Shown one piece after another: positions 7,476-25,374 of a DNA stretch of 32,000 nucleotides; positions within the stretch are counted from its first letter, which is position 1; every line of letters begins with the position of its first letter. The position numbers and the translations under genes are program-made. Origin of the DNA: Candidatus Saccharimonadota bacterium (GTDB taxonomy: Bacteria; Patescibacteriota; Gracilibacteria; BD1-5; UBA2023); contig OY970170.1 of the NCBI GenBank assembly GCA_963706795.1, positions 600,001 to 632,000 of the forward strand, read 5' to 3'. A model generated the notes under the pieces. That model did not search any database. It was not told the DNA's origin and worked only from the letters and a program-made list of their open reading frames with translations.

Positions 7476-7509
7476 TTGGATTTTTTGGTCTTTCGTCTAT
7501 GCTCTCTGC

Positions 7510-8268
7510 ATGCAAACTGGCCAATTCTCTCGCTTTGTAACCAAGGCGATCAATACGATTTTTACTCTGATCCTGCTTGGTCTCACGGTGCTCGCACTTT
7601 TTCGTCCAGATCTCGTGGAGCGTGCAATTCTCTTTATTGGCGATCAGATTAAACTCATCGGCGCATGGAATTACTTGATAGTATTTCTCTCGAGCTGTAT
7701 CGAATCTTTTCCTGTCATTGGTGTCTTGATTCCAGGGCAGCAGGTGATGCTTTTGGTTGGCGGATTTTATGGACATGACCATCTGATTGGTGTACTCATT
7801 CTCTCTTCTCTTGGCGCAATGCTCGGCAATTGGATCGGATATATTCTCTGAGTTTCGCATGGGAAGGCGTTCCTTCATCACTATGGCGATACCTTTGGCA
7901 TAGGTAAAACCGAGCAGAAGATTCTTGAGAAGCAGATCATCAAAAATGGCCCTTGGTTTATAGTGCTGGGTAAATTCCATAATTTTACTCGTTCATTTGT
8001 GCCATTTATCGCTGGTGCAATGGGAATGAAGGCAAAAAGTTTTTGGCCATACAATCTCATAGGTTCCGTTATTTGGGCTTCCACTATGATGATCTTGGGA
8101 ATATTTTTTACAACCTATCTCAAAGTGATCCTTAATTCTATTGGATATGTATTTTTGGGTATTATCACTGCCACGGTGATCTATATTTCTCTCTTTAAGC
8201 GGGCTGAATTTAGGGAATATATGCGTGAGAAACGACTTGAACTCGAATTAAAATCTCAAGGTAAATAA
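7510..8268 (+). CDS. DedA/SNARE-associated family membrane protein (one in-frame TGA at 7849-7851)
   Basis: ORFs 7510..7851 and 7963..8268 are in the same frame with no other stop between them. Motifs: 'ESFPVIGVLIPGQ', 'GNWIGYILGVSHGKAFLHHYG' and 'GKFHNFTRSFVPFIAGAMGM'. Confidence 0.8.
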
Positions 8269-8269
8269 T

Positions 8270-9406
8270 ATGACTCTCGAACTCATTACTCGATTCTTTT
8301 TTATTTTCGGAGCTTCTACATTGATATCGTGTGCTCTGTTTTGGGCGGTACTCCGATACTTTCCAAAGTTGGGACTATTGGATAATCCAGGTCCATATGG
8401 ACACGATCGAAAACCCGTGCCATTTGGAGTGGGCATTGTTCTCTATCTCAATTTCTTGATCTGTTCGCTCGCGTTACTCGGCATTTCCGAAAAACTCGTA
8501 GTATTGCTCATACTCGGAGCGATCGTCACGGCCGTGAGTTTCCTTGATGATCTTGATACTATATATAAGTACAATGAGAAAGATAAAGCCGGTAAAACGG
8601 GTGAGATGATCAAGCCTCGAGAAACTCCGTTTGCGGTTCCAGCTAAGATCCGACTGGCACTTCAGATCCTTGTGGGGCTGATAGTTGGGCTCACGAGTAT
8701 CAAGATCAGCTATGTCTCTAATCTCTTTGGTGGTATCTTGCAGCTCGATTGGCTTTCATTTACTGCATTCGGATTTGAAGTCTTCATTATCCCAGTGCTT
8801 TTTACGATCGCGTGGTATGTGCTCGTATTTAATAGCGTCAATTGGAGCGATGGAGTTCCAGGATTGACTTCTGGCCTGACATCGATTGCATTTATAGTCA
8901 TCGGGATTCTTACGGTCCGATTTTATCTCGTGGATCAGACTCCTGCACTTCATGAAAATTCGATATTTGTATTCTCAATCTTGGCGATTTGTATTCCTGC
9001 AGCACTGATTGGTTGGTTTTTAGGAATGCGTCCACGAATACTTCTCGGAGACAGTGGTACGATGTTCGCGAGCTTTATTATCGCTTCACTCGCGCTCTTG
9101 GTGGGCTGAAAGGTTGCAACGGTTGCAACCGCTCTGGGTGTCTATTTGATTGATGCATTTTACGTAATCTTTGCCCGTATTCTCAACGGTAAAAACCCAC
9201 TGAAGGGCGATCGTATTCACCACCTGCATTATCGACTTATGGCGATAGGCATGTCCGAATCAGCTATTCGTATATTTGTTTGGTCGCTTTCATTTCTTTT
9301 TGGAATGGCGGCTGCATTTTTGGATAAAGTGGGTAAGATTATTCTGTTCGTTGCGCTGATGCTCGTGATTATTTTTATCACCAAGATTCTCTCCCTCAAA
9401 AAATAG
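8270..9406 (+). CDS. glycosyltransferase family 4 polyprenyl-phosphate sugar-1-phosphate transferase (WecA/TagO/MraY superfamily)
   Basis: ORFs 8270..9109 and 9146..9406 are in the same frame, joined at the TGA 9107-9109 ('LLVG-G-KVATVATALGVYLIDAFYVIFAR'). Motifs: 'DNPGPYGHDRKPVPFGVG', 'NSVNWSDGVPGLTSG', 'LLGDSGTMF' and 'DRIHHLHYRL'. Confidence 0.8.
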
Positions 9407-9407
9407 C

Positions 9408-10097
9408 ATGAAAGGTTTTACTATCGTCGAACTCCTTGTCGCGATAACCATCATCGCGCTGATCTCTGGTACTGCATATCAGGGATATTCTTCTTTTGAT
9501 GCGAGCCAAAAAGATCGCAAGATTGTCACCAATGTCAACAATCTCATACGTTCGCTCGATCGTGAGGTTGCAAATGATAGGGTTTCCTCGTACGTTCTTA
9601 CTTTTAGTTCAGGAAGTCTCGGTTCTATAGTAACAACAAATTCTTATCGACTCACTACTCCGTTGACGCTTGGTGCATTTGATTGGGTAACACTTGCGGG
9701 GTCGATTGATATGTCTGCTCTTTCGGGAAATCCAGGATTTCGCACGGTCATCGATGGAAAAATCGCTGGTACAACAATCGGAAGCGGAGGACTCACATCT
9801 GTTGGCTTTCGCTTTCCACTCGGAAGTCATGAGCGATTTGAGCTCGTAGGATTTAATGATATCGCAGCGCTTAATAATTTTAGATTTGAGCTCTATGAGC
9901 CTGAGAGCATGCTCGCTCCCATCGATACACGGCCAAGTGTTCGCTTTGAGGATCCAACACTTACCTCTGTTGTTCTCAAGAATTTCCGCTCTAAAAAAAC
10001 TCTCGAATCTCAGTCTGGTACTGCACTTCCCAATGCTAAACTCATATTTGGACGCCTTGGCAGAACTTCCGAATACATAATTTCTCCGAATGATTAG
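9408..10097 (+). CDS. type IV pilin-like / pseudopilin protein (prepilin N-terminal cleavage-methylation motif)
   Basis: The N-terminus 'MKGFTIVELLVAITIIALISGTAY' is the class III signal (G|FT.vE + hydrophobic helix). 229 aa, TAG stop. Confidence 0.8.
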   Translation: MKGFTIVELLVAITIIALISGTAYQGYSSFDASQKDRKIVTNVNNLIRSLDREVANDRVSSYVLTFSSGSLGSIVTTNSYRLTTPLTLGAFDWVTLAGSIDMSALSGNPGFRTVIDGKIAGTTIGSGGLTSVGFRFPLGSHERFELVGFNDIAALNNFRFELYEPESMLAPIDTRPSVRFEDPTLTSVVLKNFRSKKTLESQSGTALPNAKLIFGRLGRTSEYIISPND

Positions 10098-11022
10098 AAT
10101 CTGATTTTTTTGAACTCCTGAACTCTCGCGATCCATCTTAGAATCTCTCGCAAAACAGAGCGAGTTTCAAATATGTTACGTAGTAACCCAGCCGGATAAG
10201 CCAGTCGGTCGGCATGCTGAAATGACCAAAAGTGCAGTACGAGACTTTGCAGAAACAGTTGGGATTCCGGTTTTTGTGCCTGAAAAAATTCGTGGAAATA
10301 CTGAGTTTCTCTCGGCAATAAGCGCATTGGAGGTGGATTATCTCGTGGTAGTTGCATATGGCAAGATTCTCCCAAAAGAGATTTTGGAGCTCCCCCAAAG
10401 ACATCCAATTAATATCCATGGCTCGTTACTTCCAAAATATAGAGGAGCCTCACCAGTACAGTCTGCGCTTCTTGCAGGCGAAACCGAAACAGGCATCACC
10501 TTTATTGTGATGGGTGAAGCCATGGATGATGGCGATATGCTCGCAAAAGTTTCTATCGCGATAGATCCTAAAGAAACCTCCGCGACACTTTTTGAGAAAC
10601 TCGCGGCCGTAGCACCTTCTGCGCTCAAAGAAACAATCCTTCGAGATTGGGATACGCCGATTATAGCCGAAGTACAGAATCACAAAGAAGCGACCTATTG
10701 CACAAAAATCTCGAAAGAAGACGGAAAAATCGATTTTTTGCGCCCAGCTATCGAAACATTTCATAAGTGGCAAGCCTACACACCCTGGCCAGGAATCTGG
10801 TGCGAACTTGATGGGAAACGCTGCAAAATACTCGATGTCGAGACTATAAGTGACGTGAACGAATTGGCTCCAGGCGAGTGCAAAATGATTGATAATCTCG
10901 CTCTCGTAGGCTTCATAGATCATTCAGCACTACAAATTATCACCCTTCAATGTGAAGGAAAAAAACCAATGTCTGCGGTCGAATTTTTAAAAACCCGAGG
11001 CGGGCAAGTACGATTTTTATAA
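10090..11022 (+). CDS. fmt: methionyl-tRNA formyltransferase (310 aa; N-terminus recovered through two TGA-Gly codons)
   Basis: Extending ORF 10222..11022 upstream in frame gives 'MIRI-G-FF-G-TPELSRSILESLAKQSEFQICYVVTQPDKPVGR', with TGA at 10102-10104 and 10111-10113. Also present: 'NIHGSLLPKYRGASPVQSALL'. The ATG at 10090 overlaps the pilin stop (ATGATTAG). Confidence 0.9.
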
Positions 11023-11539: not shown

Positions 11540-12307
11540 ATGTTCAATATTGCATTCAATACATTTCGTGAGCTCATTCGCAATCGGATTCTCACAATCA
11601 TTTTGTTTTTTACGTTTGTACTCATCCTGTTTTCTCAGGTATTGGCATCATTGTCGCTTGGCCAGACGGACCGAATCGTCCTTGATTTTGGTCTTGCGAT
11701 GATTGAAATCTGCGGACTCATTGCTGTAATCTTTGTTGGTGGACAGATACTTTTTAGAGAACTAGAAGGTCGTACGATTTATCTCATTCTCAGCAAGCCA
11801 ATAGCGCGAAGGGATTTCATTTTTGGGAAATTTCTTGGATTTTCGGGGATTATCTTACTCCTTCTCTTGCTTCAATCGGCTGTATTTGCGGGAGTTCTGG
11901 CATTTGGGCATATTGCATTTGATCCTCTTATTCTGACAGCGCTTCTGGCAATCTTTGTGAAGCTCTTGCTGGTCTTTGCGATTATTCTTTTTTGTTCGAC
12001 CTTTACCAATCCGCTTCTCTCCATCTTGGTGACCATGGGAATATATATCGCAGCGCACTCTACGAGCACAATCCTCGATATGGCAGCGCGCCTCAAAAAT
12101 CCATCCCTCATCATTATCGGTAAGTTCCTCACTGCAGTTATGCCTAACTTCGAGGCACTCAATTTTGCTAAAAACACTCTCTGAACTTCCGTTGCTATTG
12201 CCGCAAGCAGTTATGGGATAAATTTTGGAATTGCAGCACTCTATCTCGCTGTTATCCTCGTACTTACGGTCGTGATATTCGAACATAAGGGATTCGAAAA
12301 TGCCTAA
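11540..12307 (+). CDS. ABC-2-type transporter permease-like membrane protein (one in-frame TGA at 12182-12184)
   Basis: 'MFNIAFNTFRELIRNRILTIILFF...' and 'ELEGRTIYLILSKPIARRDFIFGKFLGF' resemble ABC-2/NosY-like permeases. The ORF continues past its TGA to TAA at 12305-12307. A GTG at 11522 is an alternative start. No ATPase partner is present in the window. Confidence 0.6.
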
Positions 12308-12959
12308 TAACCGACCGACGGAGGTCGAATTCTTTTTCCGAACTTTTTCGGTGAATAGCGATGTGCTCATGCCACGATTTGAGACAGAATCCCTCGTACG
12401 TCGAGCTATTAGTTCGCTTCACGAGGAGCCGGCTGATATTATTTGTGATGTCTGAACGGGTTCGGGGATTATTGCCGTGAGCCTAGCATCTGAGTTCCCA
12501 GATGCTAAAAATATTGCTCTCGATATCTCTCCGGCGGCGGTTGCCATTGCTCGATTGAACGCTCAGAAAAATAATACTCAAATCGAAATATGAGAGTCTG
12601 ATCTCATCTCGGGTATCGCAGATCGAAATTTTTCGTGAAAATCTCTTTTTTTTGCAGCGAACCTTCCGTATATTCGTGATAACGATCCAGAGGTTGGAGA
12701 AGATGTTGTACTCTATGATCCACATATTGCGCTCTATGGATGAGCAAAAACAGGATTTGAGTGTATCGAACGTTTTCTAGATCAATTGAATGCTATTGCA
12801 CCACAGACGAAGTCACTTCGTGTCATTCTCGAATTCGGTCATGATCAGTCTGATATTGCTGAAGCATGCTCGATAATGCACGGCTACAAATTTGCATCCT
12901 TCTCTGATCTCTCTGGTATTCCACGTTTTGCTCTACTCACTTATGCTTGATCTCGCTAA
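12300..12959 (+). CDS. prmC: HemK/PrmC-family protein-(glutamine-N5) methyltransferase, short form (219 aa, 5 in-frame TGA)
   Basis: Only visible under code 25. Motifs: 'FRTFSVNSDVLMPRFETESLV', SAM motif 'DV-G-TGSGIIAVSLA' (TGA at 12453-12455), catalytic-position 'NLPYI', and 'DPHIALYG-G-AKTGFECIERF'. The ATG at 12300 overlaps the upstream stop (ATGCCTAA). Confidence 0.75.
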
Positions 12960-13242
12960 ATATACTCAAAATCCGCACGTACTTACCGCCCTCCTTGTGA
13001 GTGCAGTAAGTACAGCTCTTAAATGAGCTGATCGAGCGGATATGATCCCATATGTGACCTGAGTAGCTCTTGGTAAGCCATGAGTTTTGGTGATTTCGAC
13101 AAATTCTACTTTAGCACGAACAGAGATCAGATTGCTGACGACCCCAATTCTCGAGTCTGTAACTACTATTCTCTCGAGATTCGACAAAAATATCGCACTT
13201 ACCCGCATTGCATTTCGCGAATGAAATCCCTCCGAAAATTAG
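12943..13242 (+). CDS. possible 99-aa hypothetical protein, open only under code 25 (4 in-frame TGA)
   Basis: This frame has no TAA or TAG from 12877 to 13240. The ATG at 12943 overlaps the prmC end and the stop overlaps the PLD start by 22 nt. No family recognised. It fills an otherwise 261-nt gap in a tightly packed operon. Confidence 0.3.
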
Positions 13243-14258
13243 TACTCTGCTGCTTCTTACTGGCTTCGTGTAGCAACCCCTACGTCGAGTACCAAAATCA
13301 ACTCGACCAAGCCAAGCAAGCACAAAAGCAAAATGCCGAAGCGATTAATGCCTTTGATCCCTCAAAGATTGAATCTTTTTCGTATGAGATCGCCGCTGGA
13401 CCCGACAAAAATATCGGAACACGGATTATTAAAGCATTCGACAGCGCGCAAAAATCGATTGATTTTAATATGTATCTCCTCACTCGGACTGATATGGTCG
13501 ATGCACTTGTGAGAGCACAGAAGCGATGAGTAAAGGTTCGTGCTATTATCGAAAAGACCGTCTATCAAATGCCGCGTATTAATAACAAGGCGTACGAGAC
13601 TCTTTCATCTGCAGGTGTTGCAGTGCAATGGGCTGACGAAAAGCGATTTAATTTTGATCACGCAAAATACTTTATTGCGGATGACACCATGATGATTGCG
13701 ACGGGGAATATGACGAAATCTTCCTTTGAGAAAAACCGCGAATTTTTTGTGTTCTCAACAGATCAACGACTCAAGGTAATGCTTGAAAAGATATTTGAAG
13801 CTGATATTACCAATACCATTCTCGATACGAGCTTCCCTGAGCTCTATATTTCACCGTCAGACTCGCGTTCAAAGATCCAAAAATTGCTCAGCGGGGCTGC
13901 AAAGTCCATCTATTTTTATTCAGAGTCGCTCTCAGATGACGCGATCCTCGATATTCTAGCCAAAAAACGTGCCGAATGACTCGATGTCAAAGTCTGTCTT
14001 TCTAAACAGAAAGGTGCATCTTTTGAAACCAAGATTGCAGATCGTCTCAAACTGGCAAATATACCTCTTACACATGCAAGCGGACCCTATGTCCATGCAA
14101 AATCATTCCTCGTCGATGGGTCGATTCTCGCCATTGGAAGCATCAATTTTACTACAAATTCACTGAATAATAACCGAGAAGTTGGCATCCTGCTGAGGAA
14201 TAGTCCATTTCTTCCACGGTATCTTTCGATCGTAAACAAAGATTGTGTCTTCCCATAA
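13221..14258 (+). CDS. phospholipase D / cardiolipin-synthase-like protein with two HKD motifs, predicted lipoprotein (2 in-frame TGA)
   Basis: Three standard-code ORFs (13080.., 13569.., and the frame after 13979) fuse in one frame. Lipobox signal 'MKSLRKLVLCCFLLASC'. HKD 1 is 'FDHAKYFIADD...GNMT' and HKD 2 is 'VHAKSFLVDG...GSINFT'. TAA at 14256-14258. Confidence 0.75.
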
Positions 14259-14303
14259 ACTCGTTGAATCAGGCAGTGAACTCGCTATAATTGCCAAAAT
14301 TCT

Positions 14304-16970
14304 ATGAAACGACTCGTTTTTGCATTCTTGGTAGCCGTCACTTCCGTTATCTGTATCGGTCTTATTTTGCGTACACAAGATGTGCGCCAAACTGCCGATG
14401 CAAGTATTAAGCTTGGACTCAGATCTGAGACAGCGCATGATATTTTTGCGCTTACAGGATCAGGAGATCTCCTCTCTAGTGCTTCTGGTACTACCGAAAA
14501 TATCAAGGCAGAAGCTCTGGGTATGATGGATTTGGTGCTCTATGATCGTAATTCGCCAGATCCGATTATTACTCAAAATACTACCAAAACAACGGTTCAG
14601 ATCGGTAAGGGGCTTTACCTTTTTAGTACAAATGATCTCTTTCAGACATATGAGATTACCTCAGATACCTTTTCTATTAAGCATGCTGCGAAGGGTGTCT
14701 TTTTTGTAGATTCACGTGCTGATGAGATTCGCATCTATTCACTCTCCGCACTGCTTGATGTTGATCTCTTGACGGATAAAACACCGGTCACAAAAGTCAG
14801 CGTCTTCCCATCAATGCTCTTTATTTACAATCCAGCATATAACACGGATCTTGCAAATGTAGATGCATTTCGCATTGCTCAGGTCAACACACTTCGAATG
14901 GTTGATCTCAATACTACCACGGGATCACGAGCAATTTTTGGCGAGAATGATGAAACTCCTACACAGATTATGAGTGCCTACAAGGCTTACTCTGCCAAGC
15001 GTGATGCAAGTTTCCGTGATTTTTATAAGGCATTCCAAATAAGCGATGATAAGAGTGATCTCTCACTCATGGATCGCTATGCAATCCTCTTTGTGAATGA
15101 CGAAAAGAAGCGATCTATTCTCATGAATTCGCTTATCGAGTCACTTCAGAGACTCTTGCTTCTTGATAAAAATCTCTGTGATACTGCCTGCAAAAAAACG
15201 ACTGGCTCACAGGATGCGCTTATCAAAAATATCACTGATCGCATCGCATCGCTTGATGCTACAGATAGCTCCAATGGAGAGTCTGCCCGTAGTCTTGTTC
15301 GTCGCTACATAGCACTCGCTACCCTCCAAACCGAAAAAAAATCCGAGGATTACTTCAGAGGTGGTAAAAGTCCATTTGTCATGCTCGTTTCAAAGGTTTT
15401 TGATAAGCGAGTTGTACTCGATGAACGCTATAGACTTCTCTCTGAGATCTATAGTTCCTACTATTTTGCTGGCGCTACCAAAGAAGAAACCGCAAAAAAT
15501 ATCGAAAATTTCATCCGCCTCCTCGTCGACGACAAGATTATTGGAGAGAAGGACTTCCTCTCATTTGTATTTTTCCTCAAGGAATATCTCTCGCTTCAGA
15601 GTAGCGTTATCAATGCGAATACACTCAATATCACCTACAACATGGTCCGAATTGCGGATGCATATTTTGTAACTCTTGGTACGGACGAGCAAAAATTCCT
15701 CGGACTTTCGACGCTGTTTTATACATTTAATACCATCTTTGATGGCATCCGTGAGAATTCACTCACGCAGTTTTTTGATGGGACACCGGATAACCTCACG
15801 CTCAAAAGCCAGTATCTCAATGGTGACAATCCAAATATTTCGAGCGACTTCCTGGCGAGTTACAAAAAAACACTCGAATCCCTCACTGATCTCCTGACTC
15901 GTAAGAATGCTGAATTCTACACTCTTCTCTGAACGAAGCAGGGTGATACGACCGATAATTTTGCCATTCTTTCGGCGACTGCAGACAAACTCAAGGCTCT
16001 CAGAGATATATTTGTCGATTACAGTGCATACCGCAAAAATCTCACATTAAATGACTCCACTCGCAATGCCACAGGTATTCTCTTCGGTGGCACCAAGCTC
16101 TCAAAAGAATCCCTCCAAACCTATCTTGCACGCTTTGAAGGCGTAAATATCTCAACGCTCGAAGTGCTCAATGACTTCGAAAAAGACAATGCATATGATG
16201 TGCGTATTACGATTGGTGGGCAGCCATTCTCATTTACGCTTCGTGAACCTGGCAATATCCTCACAAATCTCATCTACGTAGACGAAACCGGCAATACGAA
16301 CGAAAATTTTAAATCTGCTGCCATCTCACTCGATGATCGTGAGAAGCTCTCAAAAGAACGCGTAGCCATGGCACAAACGGCTGATGATCGTGCGAAATAC
16401 GACTTCCGTAACTATTTTAAGGCAACCTTCTTTAAAGCAGTTGATCTGCCAGTTATCACTACAACAGGACCGGTAATTCCATCTCATCCAGAAATGAGTC
16501 CTGATATGCAGCTCACTGTTCAGCACGAGCTCATTGAGAAGGATTTCCGTAATCTCTCAACTTTTGCGCCGATCGCGATCAAAAATATCTATGCCAAGAT
16601 CGACAGTGGAATCTACGACATTGATCTCTTTGGTGTACGATTCTCACTTCGTGGTGTGATTACGGCTTATCCGATTGAGATGACTTCCAAATATATCTTT
16701 ACGGACCAAGAACACGCGTTTTCGGGTATATCATTTAAGGTACTCAAAGATAATCCGCAGGATGGATATATGTTTGGTGGGGTCGACATTCATGTCATCC
16801 CGAATAAAATCGACCTCGCGTCATTCCAAAACAGCCTCGCAAATGCAGGTCAATACCTCGATGTTCTCCGGCGACAAGGGGTTACAAATCCCGAATCCGT
16901 GTCTATCGACCTCACAAACCAACAAATTTTTATTAACGGAACACCATTTCCTGTAACTTTCTCTAAATAA
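14304..16970 (+). CDS. large secreted/membrane-anchored hypothetical protein (888 aa, one in-frame TGA at 15930-15932)
   Basis: ORFs 14304..15932 and 16164..16970 are in the same frame and the interval between them has no TAA or TAG. N-terminal signal/anchor 'MKRLVFAFLVAVTSVICIGLIL'. No family recognised. Confidence 0.7.
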
Positions 16971-17074
16971 TGAAAAAACGCACAAATCAAGTCCTGGTGA
17001 TACTTACTGTGGGATTTCTTCTCCTTTCTTTTCTTCTTCCAATGATTTCTTTGTTTTTTCAGTCGAAAAATTAA
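16970..17074 (+). CDS. possible 34-aa single-TM micro-protein
   Basis: The ATG overlaps the upstream TAA (TAATG). Translation: MKKRTNQVLVILTVGFLLLSFLLPMISLFFQSKN. Its last 8 codons lie inside direct-repeat copy A. Confidence 0.3.
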   Translation: MKKRTNQVLVILTVGFLLLSFLLPMISLFFQSKN

Positions 17075-17150
17075 GAAAAAATTAATAATTGTGATTAGAA
17101 TGGTGAAAAGAAGCTTTCAAGGAGGAGGCTTCTTTTTTTATTTCTTGGAT
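17048..17150. repeat. direct repeat copy A (about 90-nt core plus weaker tail), contains a terminator-like hairpin
   Basis: The core 17048..17138 matches 18325..18415 with 5 mismatches by hand alignment. The hairpin is gaaaagaagc (17105-17114) / gcttctttt (17128-17136) followed by a T-run. Similarity resumes at 'atttcttggat' after a 7-nt indel. Confidence 0.85.
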
Positions 17151-17308: not shown

Positions 17309-18184
17309 ATGCAAAATCTTGAACGATCGCAAATTCCAGAAGATTATTTTCCGTACCGCTCGCATTCCCATCCTTTTTTTCACTGGCTCACAAAAAATTT
17401 GGATACATCCCACGCTTCAATCATCAATGAAGATGGCTGGTTCTGACTCATTAATCATTGCTTTTGGGGACACTTTTCAATCGCGTACTTCGAAAAGTGT
17501 GATCTTGAGCCCACGCAAGCACTCCTGATGAAATATGGTATGAAACGATGAATTGTATTCTGGTCTGGCTGGAGAAAGACAAAGCCTGCAGGACGTGGAT
17601 GGCTGAGATTCGGTTACAATTTTTCTCGAATGTATCATCACTCAACCCGTTCAGCATTTGTAGTTATCAACTCTGCAGAATACTGGGAAAAATGGACTTC
17701 AGGTGCACGATGACAGCGAAAAAAAATTCGTGACTTAGAGCAATCCGACACGATCCGCATCGATACCGACGTCAGTATTGAAGACTTCCTCATAATTTAC
17801 AACAGAACTGAAATATCCCATGGCTGGAAAACGTACTTAAGTCTAAGACAACAGTTTCTCTCTCAATATTATGGTGACAATATTCGGATCTTTCTTGCCT
17901 TTGTAGGTAATCGCCCATTGGCGGGAGCTATATTTCTCGATGACCAATCAACGAGCACATATCTCGTCGCTTTTCAAGATCCAGCAGGCAAGCCGTACCA
18001 TCTCTGACTCGCCATTGTTGATCGTTGGTGTGAACAGTCTTTTGAGAAAGGTTTTAAATACCTTGATTTCGACCATATGCAAAATACATGTGACTCGGAT
18101 TCATATGCTGGTTATACTCGCTTCAAGGCACACCTAACGGAATTTGAACTGCAGTTTCGTGAAGTATGGGCAAAATGGGTATAA
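17309..18184 (+). CDS. FemAB/CelD-like GNAT-fold acyl- or aminoacyl-transferase (291 aa, 4 in-frame TGA)
   Basis: Only open under code 25. The C-terminal half, 'IRIFLAFVGNRPLAGAIFLDDQSTSTYLVAFQDPAGKPYHLGLAIVDRWCEQSFEKGFKYLDFDH...YAGYTRFKAHL', resembles the FemAB-like / Acetyltransf_6 pattern (partner-binding strand, 'y..fD.g' and 'FK..'). TAA at 18182-18184. Confidence 0.55.
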
Positions 18185-18258: not shown

Positions 18259-18324
18259 GAGAATCTCTTTATAGAGTTTCTGCCTCTTCCTTCGTCTCCT
18301 CAATTTTCACTTTTTTCGGCGACC

Positions 18325-18434
18325 TCTTTGTTTTTTCAGTCGAAAAATTAAGAAATAATTAATAATTATGATTAGGATGGTGAAAAGAAGCTTTCAATGT
18401 GGAGGCTTCTTTTTTCGTAAAAATTTCTTTGGAT
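18325..18434. repeat. direct repeat copy B
   Basis: See copy A. The same hairpin occurs at 18382-18391 / 18405-18413. Two of the five mismatches fall in the hairpin loop (gga vs tgt) and none fall in the stem. Confidence 0.85.
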
Positions 18435-18463: not shown

Positions 18464-18492
18464 ATACAAATAGGATCATTAATTTGCTATAA

Positions 18493-21400
18493 ATGAAAAA
18501 ATATCTTCTTTCGATTCTCTTCTCACTTTTTGTACTTTTTCAGATTTCCTATGTTTCTGCATACGAAATCTTAAGTGATAGTGGTGCTCTTATTACGCAT
18601 AGCTCTCCTGATTCAGTTGTTTGGTCTTCCAATGGCAATGGTGGATATGAAGCATATGGCTATCAAATTCCACTCTACCTTTCTGGTACTATGGTCGCCA
18701 ATAAATGGGGTATAACATCCCTAACTAGTGGTGTCGATTCTTTTGGCGGTAAAAGCTACTATCATATGTATTGACCTAACTACAACTGGTGAGGATATCT
18801 TTCTATGTATTACCCAGTCTTTACAGACCATACAATGTATCGTTCAGGCATAGGGCGTTTTGAAGGTGGTCTTATGGTCTATGGTACTGGTTCAAGTCTT
18901 TACCGTTTTTGTACTTATGATGGAAATAATGGTGCTGTAAGCCTTTGAGGATGATGGAACTCTGGCTATCCACAGGGCAGATTCTTTTTTGGATCAGGTT
19001 CATCTACACAGAATTTTGCTGATTGTTCAAATAGCTATCTTTGAGGTACTTTAGTGAATTGGAATTGAGAATGATCAACAGCAACCTGTTCCGACTGAAT
19101 CAAAAATCAAGATGAGACAACTGTTGATAAAGGTTGAGTCTGCACTCCGATAATGTTCAGCATATGAAATAATCTATATATAAAGCCTGATGAAACTGCA
19201 ACTGATAATAAAGTGCTTTTTGCTTCTGGTGCGACTATAGGCGCCTTCTCCCATGATTGAATTGGAGCATATCTACAGCGTGCCTCTGACTTAAAGATTT
19301 ACTATAAACTACTTTCGAATACTAACGTTAATGATTTTGGAGTTGCCAGAGAAACAGTAAGGGGTGTAAACTCTAATCTTTGTACATTATGAGACTCCTC
19401 TGATCTCACTACTCTTATCGCTTGAGGCTGTGGTTTTTACATGTTCAAGAAGAATGCGTTAGATATGTCTAGTCTTACACCTATTCTTTCTGATCCAACT
19501 GAGCATCAGTATTCTGCTCTCCCCTCCTTCTTTACAGGTTCCTCAACCATAAGGTACCAGAATGCGTATCTTTGAGGTACGTATCTGAAAAATATTTCCG
19601 ATGCAAACCATTGAGTGCCATTTCTTGTCTCTTGATTTCCCGCCTATGCAAGCTCTTCACCTTATTGACAGGCATTACGTCTAGGCAATGACTACTACTA
19701 TGTGCATGGCCTAAGTGCAACTTATGGTAAACTTTGGAAGAAAAATGCTTTCGATTCTACTGAGTGAATTCAGTTAACAGATACGAATGTACTTGGTGTT
19801 AATAGTGGGCCAGGGACTGTATTTTCTGTAAAGGAAGATTGATCTAAGGTTGTATATAGGGAAAACTCCACTGGTTATCTTTATGTGTTACCAACTTCTC
19901 TTTCATTTCCCAGTAACTGAAATCAGGTTACGAATTTTGCTGTAACAAATCCTATGTATGGCTATGCGTCAGTGAGTCAATTAGCCACTTGTTCCGACTG
20001 AATCAAAAATCAAGATGAAACAAGTGTTGATACGGGCTGAGTATGTTCGCCAACGGCCACCACTCCAGTTGTTAGTAATATATGTCCTGCAAACATGTGT
20101 TGTTCGACGGATGTAGTAAGTAGCTCTCAGTCTAATAAACAGAACCTTCTTGACACAGCTTCGATAATGGCATCAAACATTGGCGATCCGATTACTCTAT
20201 CGTCGGGTGAGTCAATATATACGGATACTTTTCTCAAAACCCAAGCTCCAGGTGTGCCGTTTGAATTTACGCTGACCAATAAAACTCGTGCTACATACGA
20301 TGGTCCCGTAGGTTTTGGATGGGATCACAACAATAACATTTTCCTACGAGAAGAAACTGATGGCTCTGTGACGTATTACGATGGGAAGCTCGGGGTTTCT
20401 CCGTTCCCTAAAAATACGGATGGGACATTTGCTCGTAATAATTCTGCAAAAGCACAACTCACGAAGACGGGTGGATTTTATGATATAACATTCGACTCAG
20501 GGAATGTGTATCACTTCGCAAACAATCTCCGTGTTGCGACGATTACAGACAAGAATCAAAACATCACAACATTTACCTACGATACGAACAATCGCCTTAC
20601 TAAAGTAACTGATTCTCTCGGTCGAGATGCGGTGTATGTGTATTTTGATAATGGTCGCATAAAAACCGTTACAGATTCAAATGGTCGAGTAGCTACTATG
20701 GCTTATTATGGCACGAGTGATCTACTTGGGAACGAAAATGACCTCAAGTTTCTCATGATTACTAATCCTGATACATCAACAAAAACAGTTTCATATCAGT
20801 ATACCAAGGTTGGCGGCAATCAGATTCTCTCTCACAATATCAGTAAACTCGTTGATGCAAAGGGGCAGACGTATGTTGAGAATACATATGACACGAATGA
20901 CCGCGTAACAGCACAGAAGTTCGGAGATGGGACGCTTACATATGCCTATGTACTTGATGCAACAAACAAATACGTCACAAAAACTACAGTTACCAACAAG
21001 CGCGGAACTGTAACCGAATACACCTACGATCAGTACGGTAATAATCTCACTATGACGGTGCTTGCTGCGGTTTGAACTGGTTCGCTTGCATATACTTATG
21101 CGTATGATGTTTCTGGTCGCATGATTTCCGAGAAGAGGCCTCGCGGGAACGGTACAACGTATGTCTACGATATTCGTGGAAATATCCTCGAAAAACGTCA
21201 AAAGATGGACATGACTGCGGCCAATAATGACGCGGTCGATCTGGTGACGAAATATGTATACGATGTAAACTACCGCAATGCTACCGAGCGTACTCTCCCA
21301 TCAGGACTCAAGACAGCATATACCTATGATACAAAGGGGAATCTGACGGAGTCTAAGGTTGTTGCCGCAACTCTTAACAGTGGTACAACGACAGATATCA

Positions 21401-24400
21401 CGATCAGTAATGAATACGACACAAAGGGCAGACTCACAAAATCCACCGATCCAGAGGGGAATATTTCAACCTATGAATACGGGACTGGAAGTGCCATTAC
21501 AAAGATTACAAAGGGGCTTCGTAATTCGGGGGCAGGTTTGGATGCTACGGCTGCAAGAGTCATAACCTATACCTACGATACTCGTGAAAACCCACTCACA
21601 ACAACTGATCCCGAGGGGAATGTAAGTACATTTACATACGATGCATTCGATCGACTTACCTCTCAGCTTTCGGCAGCAGGGATTCGGAAGAATTTTGTAT
21701 TCAGTGCGAATAACAAGATCGAGAAAACGATCACTCCGCTCACGGAATCAGTGAGTCTCACTGAGGAAAATACCTACGATACCCTTGATGAAATCATCGG
21801 CACAAAACTCAGTAGTACTCCTTCTGATGCTCGTAATCTCGTCATTGTTCGTGACAAGAACGAGAATATTGTTTCGACGACTGATCCATCAGGACTCACA
21901 ACCAAGTACACTTACGATGCACTCGAGCGTGTTACCGAAAAAAGACTCGTCACAGTCGCAAATGATCCTACAAAGGATATCGTGACCCGTTACGAATACG
22001 ATACAAATGGAAATCAGATCAAGATCACTGATCCTATCGGTGCTATTACCGTGCTTACATACGATCTCTTTGATCGTCCAAAGACCAAGACGGATGCTCT
22101 CGGCACAAAAACAACCTACACCTATGATACGGTTGGAAACATCACAGAAACTCGCACAGAAAGTGCAACAGGAGCACTCCTTGCCAAGACATCTGTTGTA
22201 TTCAATTCAATCACAAGACTACTGACACAGTCAGTATGGAATCTTTCGACAAACACACCAATAGTGCAGTCGTACACATATGATAAAAACGGAAATATCC
22301 TCACGCTCACCGATCCACGAAGCGGAGTAACGACAACGTCATATTCTCTACACTGACAACCGGTTGAGATCACTGATCCTGTTGGAAATAAAACCCAGTT
22401 TACTTACGACAAGCGCGGACTCGTCATCACTCGAAAGTCACTCACAACTGACGGGAAAATCGCCACCACATCGTATCTCTACGACGGTGATGGACGGGTG
22501 CTTTCGAGCACAGATGCACTCGGCAATATCCAAAAATATGCATACGATGCATTTGGTCGCGTAACAAAAAAGACCGATCCAGCGAATAATATTACCGACT
22601 ATATCTACGATATATTCGGCAATCTTCTGGGTGAAAATGTTCGCTTTGGAACTGGAACGGTGACTACGTCATACGAGTATAACACTGCAAACCGAGTCAC
22701 GAAACTCACAGATGCAAAGGGAAATGTAACGACATATTCTTACGATATGCTTGGTCGCAAAACCAAGCAGACATCTGCAGATGGAAGTTTCACAACCTTT
22801 GTCTACGATGCAGCATCGCGACTTACAGGATCAACGGATGCAAATGGAACTGTCGTCACCAATGTCTACGATCCACTTGGTCGCCTCACTGCACGTACTA
22901 TTGCAACCGGTACAGGTGTACTTTGAACAACGAGTGAATCATATAGCTACGATCCACTCGGTCGTCTTACTTCTGCAAATGATAACCAAAGCGGAAGCCT
23001 GAATTTCACCTATGATAGCCTAGGCCGTCTCGCAACCGAGTCACAGGGAATGGGTCAGATCAGCTATACCTACGATCTAGCTGGAAATCGTACCAATATC
23101 ACAACGGGTATGGGCTATCTCGTGGATTTGACCTATGATCCACTGAGTCGTCTTTCGGCGGTTTCGTACAATGGTGTGAATATTGCGACATACAGTTATA
23201 CAGGGGCTTCCTTGAGTTCGCTTCAGTTTGCAAATGGGGTAACTACGAGTGCGTCTCAAGATATCATCGGACGACTGACGGCTCTTGATTTTGGGGCAAC
23301 TGGTCTTCCAGGTCGTGTGTTCACATATTCAGCAAATGGAAATATCCTCTCTGATGGACAAAAGGATTATACATATGACGTACTGAGTCGACTTACTCAG
23401 ACGCAGAGCCAATCTGGTGCACTCATTGCTCCTGAAAATACACTCTACGCGTACGATGCAGTTGGGAATCGTCTCGCAGAAAATAAACTGCAAGCCACTA
23501 AGTTGTACACGACAAATATGCTCAACCAGTACCTCTCCTTGAGTGATTCTACTGCATCAGGCGCAACTACGTTCACCTACGATCTCAACGGCAATATTCT
23601 TTCGAACGCAAAGTTCAAATTTGCATACGACTATCAAAATAGACTCGTAGAAGTTCGTAATACTGCAGATAATTCGCTCGTTGCACGCTATGTCTACGAT
23701 GTCCTCGGGCGTCGTACTTCCAAGTCAGTCGGAGATGCCACAACGACCTATCTCTATGCAGGAACTGATGTCATAAAAGAGTCCAAAAAGGCTACTCCAG
23801 AATCCACAGTACTCGATACCCTTCGAGTTTACGGCAATGGCGCAGATGACCTCCTTGCATACACGACTCAGGAATCTTCCGTTGCCCCTTCTGTCTCGGA
23901 AGAATACGCTTTTTGTCTCAAATCTGTCACGCCTTCCAAGGCATCTTTCCTCAAATATGGTTGGACAGCACTCGTAGACCGATGTAACGATCTCACGACC
24001 CAAACTCAGAACGCAACGATCGCAACACATACCCACTACCTCTTCAAAGATCACCAGAATTCCACCCTCGCCCTCACCGATGCCTCAGGCTCGCTCGTCG
24101 CGTCATACTCATACGATGCATTCGGACTTCCGTACATCGCAACTGGTTCAGGAGCATTCACTCCACTCTCTATCTACACTGGTTCGCTTCACAACAACGA
24201 CCGATTCTTCACCGGTCGTGAATATGACTCAGAAACAGGACTCTACCACTACCGAGCAAGAACCTACGATCCAATCCTCGGTAGATTCCTCCAAAGAGAT
24301 CCCGTAGGAACTGCCGATCAAATCAATCTCTATACATATGTCGGGAACAATCCTGTGCGGTTTGTAGATCCGAGTGGGATGGTTATTAAGACTACACTGA

Positions 24401-24888
24401 TGGAAGCACGAGGATGAATCGCTGGGTACTATGATTTTGTACAACAACAAAAAAAGAGTGATAATTTCTCAGACTATGGACCTGCGTATGTTTCAGATAT
24501 TACCATTGCTCCTGCATTCAATCTGATTGGAAATTGGGAGAAATTATCGTCAACCGAGAGAGTTGCTAATTCTGCATTAATAATCCCCTACGATAAAGTA
24601 ATTTCATTATGAGCGGAGGCGACAATATGAACTGTAAAAACATTTGAATTAGTAACTACGCATTGACTTACGAAGAGTAAAAAGGAAATGGCAAAATTAG
24701 CTCAGGATATTGCGGAGAACGGTATAAAAGATGCTGTAAAATATATAGAATTTAAAGGTACTAAATATTTAGTTGATGGTCATCATAGACTTGCAGCCGC
24801 GAAAGAGTTACTTATAAAAGAAATACCTGCAGAAGTAGTAAAACTTCCATATAATTGATATCAGACTGTAAAAGACCTATTCTTCTAA
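18493..24888 (+). CDS. giant secreted RHS/YD-repeat polymorphic toxin (2131 aa, 30 in-frame TGA) with C-terminal ParB/Srx-like 'DGHHR' domain
   Basis: I walked the frame codon by codon from 18493 and found no TAA or TAG until 24886-24888. All five standard-code ORFs (18493.., 20095.., 21121.., 22498.., 23050..) share this frame. Signal peptide 'MKKYLLSILFSLFVLFQISYVSA'. RHS core entry 'GDPITLSSGESIYTDT...GPVGFGWDHN'. There are dozens of YD repeats ('YTYD..GN', 'Y.YD.lgRl'). The core ends at 'DPVG-x19-DPSGM' (24367-24381). Confidence 0.85.
19087..19143 (+). repeat. intragenic repeat 1 encoding Cys module 'CSDGIKNQDETTVDKGGVC'
   Basis: This 57-nt segment is near-identical to 19990..20046, for example the shared tgttccgactgaatcaaaaatcaagatga. 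In both copies, both glycines flagged G in 'SD-G-I' and 'G-G-V' are TGA. Confidence 0.8.
19990..20046 (+). repeat. intragenic repeat 2 encoding 'CSDGIKNQDETSVDTGGVC'
   Basis: See repeat 1. It lies 903 nt downstream in the same frame, immediately before the RHS core. Confidence 0.8.
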
Positions 24889-24897
24889 AACCCAACT

Positions 24898-25374
24898 ATG
24901 GCACTTTGGCAATATCAATGTCGTCTTTACCCAAGAGAAAATATTAAAACTTTACTGAAGGCAGAGATCTGAAATTTTACTATTGATTTACTAGATGAAT
25001 TAAATTTATGGAAGGAATTTAAATTACAGAAAGAGCTTTTATTAGACCTGTCTAGGATTTTGCCTTCAGTAAAGTCCTGGTCAGAGGATGTCCTAGTGTA
25101 TGGTGATACAGCTACCAGTGATATACAAATAGACATTGAATGATGATCTATAAATTCCGTATCTTTCCGTTTAGATATACAACGACCGAATAATGTGTTA
25201 CTCGCACAATTTCTTGAATTGGTAACTAAATACGAATTAAGCTGTTTTAGTCAGAACGATATTATTCTAGTGCCAGATAAAATTAGTCTTATTAAGAGTA
25301 TTAGGAAATCACCTGCATTTAACTTTGTTGCTAATCCTGAAGAATTTCTCAGTTCGTTAACCAATATTACCTAG
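24898..25374 (+). CDS. candidate cognate immunity protein (158 aa, 3 in-frame TGA), family unknown
   Basis: The ATG lies 9 nt after the toxin TAA. Under code 25 the frame is open to TAG at 25372-25374 (MALWQYQCRLYPRENIKTLLKAEIGNFTIDLLDELNLWKEF...). It shares the same low-GC block as the toxin tip and has no signal peptide or TM segment. The functional call rests on position only. Confidence 0.55.

Follow-up and report, generated by a model that had tools for sequence, protein, structure and literature searches.

What kind of gene lies behind a 6.4-kb reading frame that is interrupted by 30 TGA codons, and what would its product do? The frame occupies positions 18493-24888 of the forward strand in a 32-kb stretch of DNA (the window: positions 600,001 to 632,000 of contig OY970170.1), and an earlier note, made from the sequence alone, described it as a secreted RHS/YD polymorphic toxin of a Gracilibacteria-type bacterium that reads TGA as glycine. 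The RHS domains, the genetic code, the relatives, the toxin tip and the immunity gene all agree with that description, and the evidence supports one intact gene, readable only when TGA is translated as glycine, for a toxin predicted to be secreted and shell-packaged. The reading favoured here, with a probability of roughly 0.8, is an accessory toxin-immunity locus of a Gracilibacteria-type organism using code 25, in which Sec export, an RHS cocoon, a ParB-fold tip acting through nucleoside triphosphates (NTPs) and an adjacent immunity gene would work together. This is a known type of weapon in a poorly known group of bacteria; neither the mechanism nor the kind of system is new. Beyond the earlier description, the present analysis identifies the tip and the immunity gene, shows that the locus is accessory and offers an explanation for the distribution of TGA codons; the target and the chemistry of the tip we infer.

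A single reading frame for an RHS toxin

Codon counts confirm one frame from the ATG at 18493 to the TAA at 24886, with 2132 codons including the terminal TAA and thus the 2131 sense codons that had been claimed. Within it there are 30 TGA, no TAG and no internal TAA codons, and no frameshift. Another in-frame TAA (18490-18492) directly precedes the ATG, which is therefore the earliest possible start. By our own estimate, the chance of a run of 2131 codons free of TAA and TAG, given the composition, is about e^-88. Translation table 11 splits the frame into eight open reading frames (ORFs) of 93, 47, 44, 326, 411, 142, 455 and 56 amino acids (aa), as was to be expected from the prediction that standard-code pipelines would shred it into five or more fragments. 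The description of the gene as hidden holds for those pipelines only, since full-length RHS proteins of Candidatus Gracilibacteria (P0012, P0014) are already present in NCBI. When gene calling in recoded genomes from the candidate phyla radiation (CPR) uses the standard code, or takes TGA as tryptophan, the targeting and killing ends of a 2131-aa toxin are lost and fragments of its shell remain.

A Pfam and TIGRFAM search of the table 25 translation recovered the whole RHS architecture (Table 1). The proposed core entry motif, GDPITLSSGE...GFGWDHN (residues 564-611), matches DUF6531. The roughly 1400 aa of YD repeats correspond to 21 stretches of RHS_repeat (PF05593, E=5e-101) and 13 units of TIGR01643 (E=1.6e-86), and the double DPxG end of the core closes the TIGR03696 match: DPVG (residues 1936-1939, nt 24298-24309) is followed after 19 residues by DPSGM (residues 1959-1963, nt 24367-24381), within PVRFVDPSGM. 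From its sequence, the end of the core domain is predicted to be an aspartyl autoprotease together with its cleavage boundary.

The closest relatives of the core are 34-48% identical over its full length, while all others reach at most 32%. Of these best matches, P0012 and P0014 carry the name Candidatus Gracilibacteria, and P0005 and P0007 reveal their TGA codons by tryptophan at glycine positions. Comparison with these RHS genes of TGA-recoded Gracilibacteria (also loci L083-L085) shows the same DUF6531 domain, shell and Rhs core, and the same mosaic of a TGA-poor core between TGA-rich ends; P0005 additionally has the Cys motif and the linker in common with the window protein. The differences lie at the two ends. 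Gracilibacteria core relatives carry other N-termini (subtilisin S8, LamG and beta-helix-like repeats) and differing tips (M15 peptidase, Tox-REase-9 and unknown ones), and the 168-aa tip of the window protein is unrelated to those of the closest cores. Some of these loci continue with orphan RHS fragments, Imm32 and Tox-REase-9 cassettes, none of which occur in the window. A metagenome scan with the end of the RHS core returned no close relatives, and a literature search for RHS in Gracilibacteria or CPR found passing mentions only and, in the literature searched, no paper discussing them. Judged by these sequences, RHS toxins are a recurrent and already annotated feature of the Gracilibacteria lineage.

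A toxin tip and its immunity gene

The 168 aa that follow DPSGM (residues 1964-2131) form the toxin tip. Its homologs P0001-P0003 are 45-52% identical: a 141-aa Flavobacterium protein (P0001, 52%), the C-terminal end of an RHS protein from Sorangium (P0002) and a protein from a metagenome (P0003); P0001 and P0003 contain PF02195. Of 1.84 billion cluster representatives 730 belong to the tip family, and with few exceptions the tip sits at the very C-terminal end of proteins that range from 74 to 3196 aa. Its carriers in metagenomes include RHS, HINT and other proteins as well as small orphan ORFs, as expected for a polymorphic-toxin cassette.

Nine nucleotides after the RHS stop begins a gene (24898-25374) that is absent from the earlier note and was identified in the present analysis. 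Its product starts MALWQYQCRLYP; the ORF directly after the Flavobacterium tip P0001 starts MAIWQYTFQVLP and is 33% identical to it (E=4e-19, locus L001), and the ORF directly after the Sorangium tip P0002 (L002) also matches it (E=4e-10). The pairing was surveyed by scanning metagenomes with the tip alignment and searching the 70 returned loci with hidden Markov models of the tip and of the immunity family. Among 46 strong tip matches, 28 are followed after 12-170 nt by a same-strand member of the immunity family; six of the 46 are too short, and of the 40 loci with at least 480 nt downstream the fraction is thus 28/40. None of the weak ParB-like matches in the scan is accompanied by the family. 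By homology to the ORFs that follow the same tip elsewhere, 24898-25374 is assigned as the cognate immunity gene of the RHS tip. None of three immunity homologs has a Pfam match (E<=5), and the family has no relative in the PDB. With at least 30 paired examples, this undescribed immunity family offers an experimental handle.

A separate observation concerns Flavobacterium supellecticarium (L001, 7157-10043), where small ORFs, a ParB-type tip and its immunity gene among them, are lined up downstream of a large RHS/FG-GAP gene. The same row holds a Colicin_D-type tip with its own small partner, in the manner of a classic orphan toxin-immunity array.

Table 1. Features of the RHS toxin and its immunity gene in the window
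Feature	Residues	Position (nt)	Strand	Basis
Complete RHS polymorphic toxin ORF		18493..24888	+	frame and codon counts, domains, TGA=Gly evidence
Predicted Sec signal peptide	1-23	18493..18561	+	inspection and hydropathy
N-terminal region	24-518	18562..20046	+	composition; no family match
Cys-flanked motif, copy 1, CSDGIKNQDETTVDKGGVC	199-217	19087..19143	+	two of its Gly are TGA
Cys-flanked motif, copy 2, CSDGIKNQDETSVDTGGVC	500-518	19990..20046	+	TGA at the same two positions
Ser/Thr/Cys-rich linker	519-562	20047..20178	+	similar linker in P0005
RHS/YD-repeat shell	563-1963	20179..24381	+	PF05593 (RHS_repeat), TIGR01643
DUF6531 plug	564-631	20182..20385	+	PF20148, E=2.9e-9, score 37.6 (cut-off 24.1)
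RHS-associated core domain	1900-1963	24190..24381	+	TIGR03696, E=6.4e-24, score 84.3 (cut-off 32.5)
Tip, N-terminal part	1964-2039	24382..24609	+	no Pfam match; poorly conserved among tip homologs
Predicted ParB/sulfiredoxin-fold toxin domain	2040-2131	24610..24885	+	homologs, profile against PDB, models
Predicted cognate immunity gene, 158 aa		24898..25374	+	homology to the ORF after the same tip elsewhere

An accessory locus

Both flanks of the locus are collinear with L003, from the closest genome (Patescibacteria metagenome-assembled genome (MAG) Deming_bin.574), with hyp904 and a small membrane ORF on one side and Yip1, DZR, FKBP, HolA and Mfd on the other. Between them the window has a block formed by a GNAT gene (17309-18184), the RHS gene and the immunity gene, whereas L003 has one 209-aa lipoprotein gene at the syntenic site and lacks the block; the locus is therefore accessory. 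It adds a complete accessory toxin-immunity pair to a lineage about whose cell-cell interactions very little is known.

Export, packaging and target

The 2131-aa protein would be exported by Sec and its signal peptide cut after VSA. The sequence shows the pattern of the N-terminal signal that had been proposed, with VSA|YE at residues 21-25: residues 1-23 consist of MKK, a hydrophobic core of 13 residues and the cleavage motif, and reach a Kyte-Doolittle maximum of 3.1. The following region of about 500 aa is made of two modules (residues 24-217 and 218-518), each closed by a 19-residue Cys motif. Gly, Ser, Thr, Tyr and Asn are abundant in it, and its cysteines are paired at 140/178, 199/217, 297/313 and 500/518, a composition that fits an extracellular disulfide-bonded domain. 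Outside the cell this presumably disulfide-rich region would probably serve in surface display or target recognition.

The two copies of the Cys motif (consensus CSDGIKNQDETxVDxGGVC) are 87% identical as DNA (repeat D8). Tandem copies of it are present in P0004, an unrelated protein of 560 aa, and it also stands ahead of the RHS core in P0005 and P0013; this short element is all that the N-terminal region shares with other proteins. Neither Pfam nor NCBIfam yields a match to residues 24-518, even with the threshold relaxed to E<=10, and Pfam searches of sub-segments at this threshold gave none; the N-terminal 638 aa found a single marginal match among 5.8 billion proteins, to a 32-aa motif; and a genome scan with the N-terminal 1000 aa, in which three of six patterns held TGA-coded Gly, returned no relatives. 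This lack of relatives is provisional, because database gene calls in code 11 or code 4 may hide true ones. A surface region of 500 aa without relatives could set the target range of the toxin.

Downstream of the linker, the DUF6531 plug, the YD shell and the Rhs core domain would form a closed cocoon around the C-terminal 168 aa and cut at PVRFVDPSGM. The domains and the motif are seen in the sequence, and encapsulation and autoproteolysis would follow the pattern of solved RHS/Tc structures. The 158-aa product would neutralise the tip inside the producer; the pairing of the two genes is observed, and the binding of their products we infer.

Which of the known delivery systems does this arrangement recall? 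Residues 1-562 contain no PAAR, VgrG, SpvB/TcdB (TcdB_toxin_midN), LXG or WXG domain in Pfam or NCBIfam, and the locus resembles the Sec-dependent, WapA-type RHS toxins of single-membrane bacteria more than those of the T6SS (type VI secretion system) or Tc types. WapA of Bacillus subtilis is reportedly a Sec-exported RHS toxin of a single-membrane bacterium, and it is said to combine a signal peptide, an extracellular N-terminus, an RHS/YD shell, a PxxxxDPxG[LM] boundary, a variable toxin and a downstream immunity gene, all of which have their likeness here, the signal peptide in predicted form; T6SS adaptor domains are absent from the window protein and are not known from WapA. The tips of WapA are reportedly tRNases and its N-terminus is said to carry cell-wall-binding repeats, whereas the window protein has a predicted ParB-fold tip, an unmatched N-terminus and code 25.

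Could the toxin be a weapon of predation or parasitism, aimed at the host or prey of an episymbiont and using its N-terminus for host recognition, rather than a means of excluding kin or competitors? This is conceivable but on balance unlikely. Relatives of the lineage are thought to be host-dependent, and giant surface proteins of Vampirococcus have been proposed to act in host attachment (PMC8080830). The N-terminal region is lineage-specific and Cys-rich, some Gracilibacteria RHS relatives have tips of the cell-wall-degrading M15 peptidase type, and the locus is accessory and differs between close relatives. However, the sequence holds nothing that identifies the target, and an adjacent immunity gene combined with cassette-type exchange of the tip is the classical signature of inter-bacterial competition. 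Immunity would be needed in either role, so that its presence by itself does not discriminate between them.

Fold and likely chemistry of the tip

The last ~90 residues of the tip are predicted to be a ParB/sulfiredoxin-fold domain with a GHHR phosphate-binding motif (residues 2096-2099, nt 24778-24789). GHHR is invariant among the tip homologs, and the invariant residues of the alignment include THG and V.GHHRL..AKEL...P...VKLPY. A profile of the tip run against the PDB finds Helicobacter pylori ParB (4umk, E=2.4e-6), sulfiredoxin (Srx; 6ky4, 4.4e-4) and SbnI (5e-3), and aligns GHHR with box II of ParB (GERR), with GCHR of Srx and with GVHR of SbnI. An AlphaFold model of P0001 (predicted local distance difference test score, pLDDT, 80-90 over the domain) matches sulfiredoxin, ParB-CDP, Noc, SbnI, KorB, PadC and serine kinase, those to Srx, ParB, Noc and SbnI at E ~4e-6. 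The model of the window's own TGA-free 63-aa tip fragment (pLDDT 65) has only ParB/Srx-type folds at the top, with query-normalised TM-scores of 0.6-0.76. The preceding residues 1964-2039 may form an entry or linker subdomain.

Tox-ParB tips have been described on RHS and FilH carriers as a class of nucleic-acid-targeting toxins (Zhang et al. 2012, PMC3482391), and by its sequence the window tip would belong to this class. It has in common with it the ParB-fold C-terminal domain, the conserved Arg, the presence on RHS and other carriers and the small immunity gene that follows. It differs in its partner, which is of an undescribed family, whereas the partners there are Imm20, Imm27 and SuFu, and Patescibacteria are not in that paper's table of Tox-ParB lineages. 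A second point of comparison is ToxB, a ParB-fold CdiA tip with the motif GNHR that binds and hydrolyses ATP and collapses the nucleoid, leaves DNA uncut and is inhibited by a dimeric immunity protein occluding its pocket (bioRxiv 10.64898/2026.05.05.722872). By its description, ToxB (Erwinia, Providencia, Klebsiella and Proteus) resembles the window tip in its fold, in the His before the Arg (GNHR and GHHR), in having no DNA-binding domain and in the small immunity gene downstream. Unlike the Sec/RHS carrier of the window, it is carried by CdiA of the type V secretion system (T5SS), with a VENN boundary, in Enterobacterales, and ATPase activity is an assumption in the case of the window tip. 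The ToxB structure does not figure among the PDB matches of the tip or of the immunity family.

By analogy with ToxB, the freed tip, a putative nucleotide-binding domain with GHHR where ParB has GERR, would most likely poison the target cytoplasm through NTP binding or hydrolysis and not as a nuclease. A DNase or other nuclease at the end of the same gene is the main alternative to this NTP-dependent mechanism, and an improbable one. In its favour, Zhang et al. (PMC3482391) place Tox-ParB among nucleic-acid-targeting toxins and note ParB domains in restriction-modification-like nucleases, PADLOC matches fall on ParB-domain methyltransferases of restriction-type systems, and the tip has a weak match to ParBc_2, 'putative ParB-like nuclease'. 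Yet the same paper states that the nuclease label for ParB rested on erroneous assumptions. ToxB, the sole ParB-fold polymorphic toxin characterised in the literature searched, hydrolyses ATP and leaves genomic DNA uncleaved, and in every one of the closest solved folds NTP is bound at the GxxR box, which the window tip conserves. The ParB-fold tip is a testable member of a class whose action as an ATPase toxin has been demonstrated in a 2026 preprint only.

Several points weigh against the favoured toxin-immunity reading as a whole. The signal peptide was called by eye and hydropathy only. The window tip, searched alone, gives sub-threshold matches to ParB_N, ParBc_2, Noc and SerK in Pfam and NCBIfam, and its fold assignment draws on homologs, a profile and models of moderate confidence (pLDDT 67 and 65). 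Other proteins of the ParB/Srx fold are kinases, CTPases or putative nucleases. On the side of immunity, 12 of the 40 evaluable tip loci lack the window's family, and this family is not Imm20, Imm27 or SuFu, the Tox-ParB partners in the literature (Pfam, E<=5).

TGA codons cluster at the two ends of the gene

The 30 TGA codons are distributed very unevenly, with 22 of them in the N-terminal region. There TGA makes up 22/66 Gly codons (33%), at a GC content of third codon positions (GC3) of 0.29; in the RHS core it makes up 3/111 (2.7%; GC3 0.41), in the tip 5/12 (42%; 0.24) and in the immunity gene 3/4 (75%; 0.26). The background set by 18 other window genes is 32/432 (7.4%; GC3 about 0.42), from which the N-terminal region differs with P=6e-8 (P=2e-8 against the core; Fisher's exact test). 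As the core lies near the background in both measures and the ends differ from it, the shell looks native, and both ends and the immunity gene are the outliers. Horizontal transfer of the RHS core from a standard-code donor was considered and rejected: the core matches the background, and its nearest relatives are Gracilibacteria.

The same pattern recurs in independent Gracilibacteria RHS genes, where the TGA shares of N-terminus, core and C-terminus are 25%, 9% and 56% in L083 and 24%, 4% and 68% in L085; in the 20% GC locus L084 the contrast is weaker (91%, 71% and 81%). It has long been known of Rhs elements that their core is richer in GC and their tips are rich in AT. In a code-25 genome the AT-rich ends appear as TGA density, because the change from GGA to TGA is a single synonymous one. 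None of the metagenomic tips has a TGA inside the domain, and the window cassette would therefore have evolved in recoded lineages for long enough to gain eight TGA: five in the tip and three in the immunity gene, two of them on invariant Gly.

A more speculative scheme, which we regard as improbable, makes the protein a host or prey weapon with an N-terminal host-recognition module and adds that, for toxin cassettes, code 25 could work like a one-way valve. Their tips and immunity genes would enter from standard-code bacteria and then gain TGA-Gly codons. If this were true, TGA-bearing cassettes could no longer be exported in working form, and recoded lineages would build up a private toxin arsenal.

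The mosaic could also be the mark of an assembly chimera, with an AT-rich N-terminus, a GC-richer core and an AT-rich tip with its immunity gene joined from different genomes. The sharpness of the steps, in GC3 as in TGA share, would fit such an artefact. But the frame is continuous, functional motifs cross the junctions (from the linker to DUF6531 and from DPSGM to the tip), L003 is syntenic on either flank, and the mosaic is found again in L083 and L085 and, more weakly, in L084, besides being classical for Rhs elements; a chimera is thus very improbable.

Among the other window genes, the share of TGA in Gly codons varies from 0% in TypA, sortase, FKBP, pilin and a zinc-ribbon protein to 36% in PrmC and Yip1. 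The share per gene follows low GC3, and its variation could reflect expression level or gene age.

Genetic code and organism

Conserved proteins of the window show that TGA codes for glycine (code 25). In Fmt (methionyl-tRNA formyltransferase), FF[TGA]TPE of the window aligns with FAGTPD of Escherichia coli, and in PrmC/HemK DV[TGA]TGSG aligns with DLGTGTG; in both cases TGA falls on an invariant Gly. Within the RHS gene, TGA encodes two glycines that are conserved in the toxin tip family, the invariant one of 'THG' and that of 'xGY', and also residue 1478, in a Gly-conserved RHS column. The TGA sites in the Mfd alignment lie in variable columns and are uninformative in this respect, and a tRNA scan of the 32-kb window found no tRNA gene.

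The window Mfd is 82% identical to that of Deming_bin.574 and 41-49% identical to those of MAGs labelled Gracilibacteria or Peribacteria. All seven Mfd genes checked in the nearest MAGs (L003-L007, L010 and L011) have 2-44 in-frame TGA and no TAA or TAG, and the window therefore belongs to a TGA-recoded clade of Gracilibacteria. A pseudogene or a set of separate genes in a standard-code or TGA=Trp organism, as the eight ORFs of table 11 and the tryptophans at these sites in some relatives' database entries might suggest, is rejected and can be considered practically excluded, since 30/30 interruptions over 6.4 kb are TGA, with no other stop or frameshift, and TGA stands on conserved Gly in Fmt, PrmC, the tip and the RHS core, in a lineage with recoded Mfd genes.

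The database translations of four Gracilibacteria RHS proteins (P0005, P0007, P0011 and P0013; loci L083 and L085) show W where Gly is expected, for example in FTWREYD and NLWDPV. Their genes appear to have been called with TGA as tryptophan, a systematic mistranslation that weakens homology searches of recoded lineages. One of the Mfd loci, L005 (match at 7485-10109), is labelled 'Candidatus Peribacteria', yet its Mfd gene contains 40 TGA in frame and neither TAA nor TAG; by this gene it would be a TGA-recoded organism despite its label.

Neighbouring genes

The window's other genes serve ordinary housekeeping and envelope functions and encode sortase, TypA, DedA, a WecA/MraY-type transferase, type IV pilin, Fmt, PrmC, a PLD-family protein, FKBP, HolA and Mfd. 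An exact look-up of the FKBP, whose gene is free of TGA, had no match on record. The PrmC/HemK homolog (12300-12959, +) has NLPY in place of the family motif NPPY, and TGA accounts for 5/14 of its Gly codons.

The GNAT acetyltransferase gene beside the RHS gene is flanked by a 106-nt direct repeat (17033-17138 and 18310-18415, 89% identical). Each copy comprises the 3' end of a small ORF and a terminator-like hairpin, and L003 has a single copy, which suggests that GNAT was inserted by duplication or recombination beside the RHS island. Just upstream of the island lies the gene for an 889-aa signal-peptide protein (14304-16970, +), without a Pfam match and with ~68% DNA identity to L003; it may be another lineage-specific surface protein. 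It is directly followed by an unannotated ORF of 34 codons (16971-17075, +) for a hydrophobic peptide, MKKRTNQVLVILTVGFLLLSFLLPMISLFFQSKN, that is kept in L003 in both sequence and position. On the other side, L003 has ~2.4 kb between Mfd and HolA (12606-15071) without a counterpart in the window, a second indel within 30 kb.

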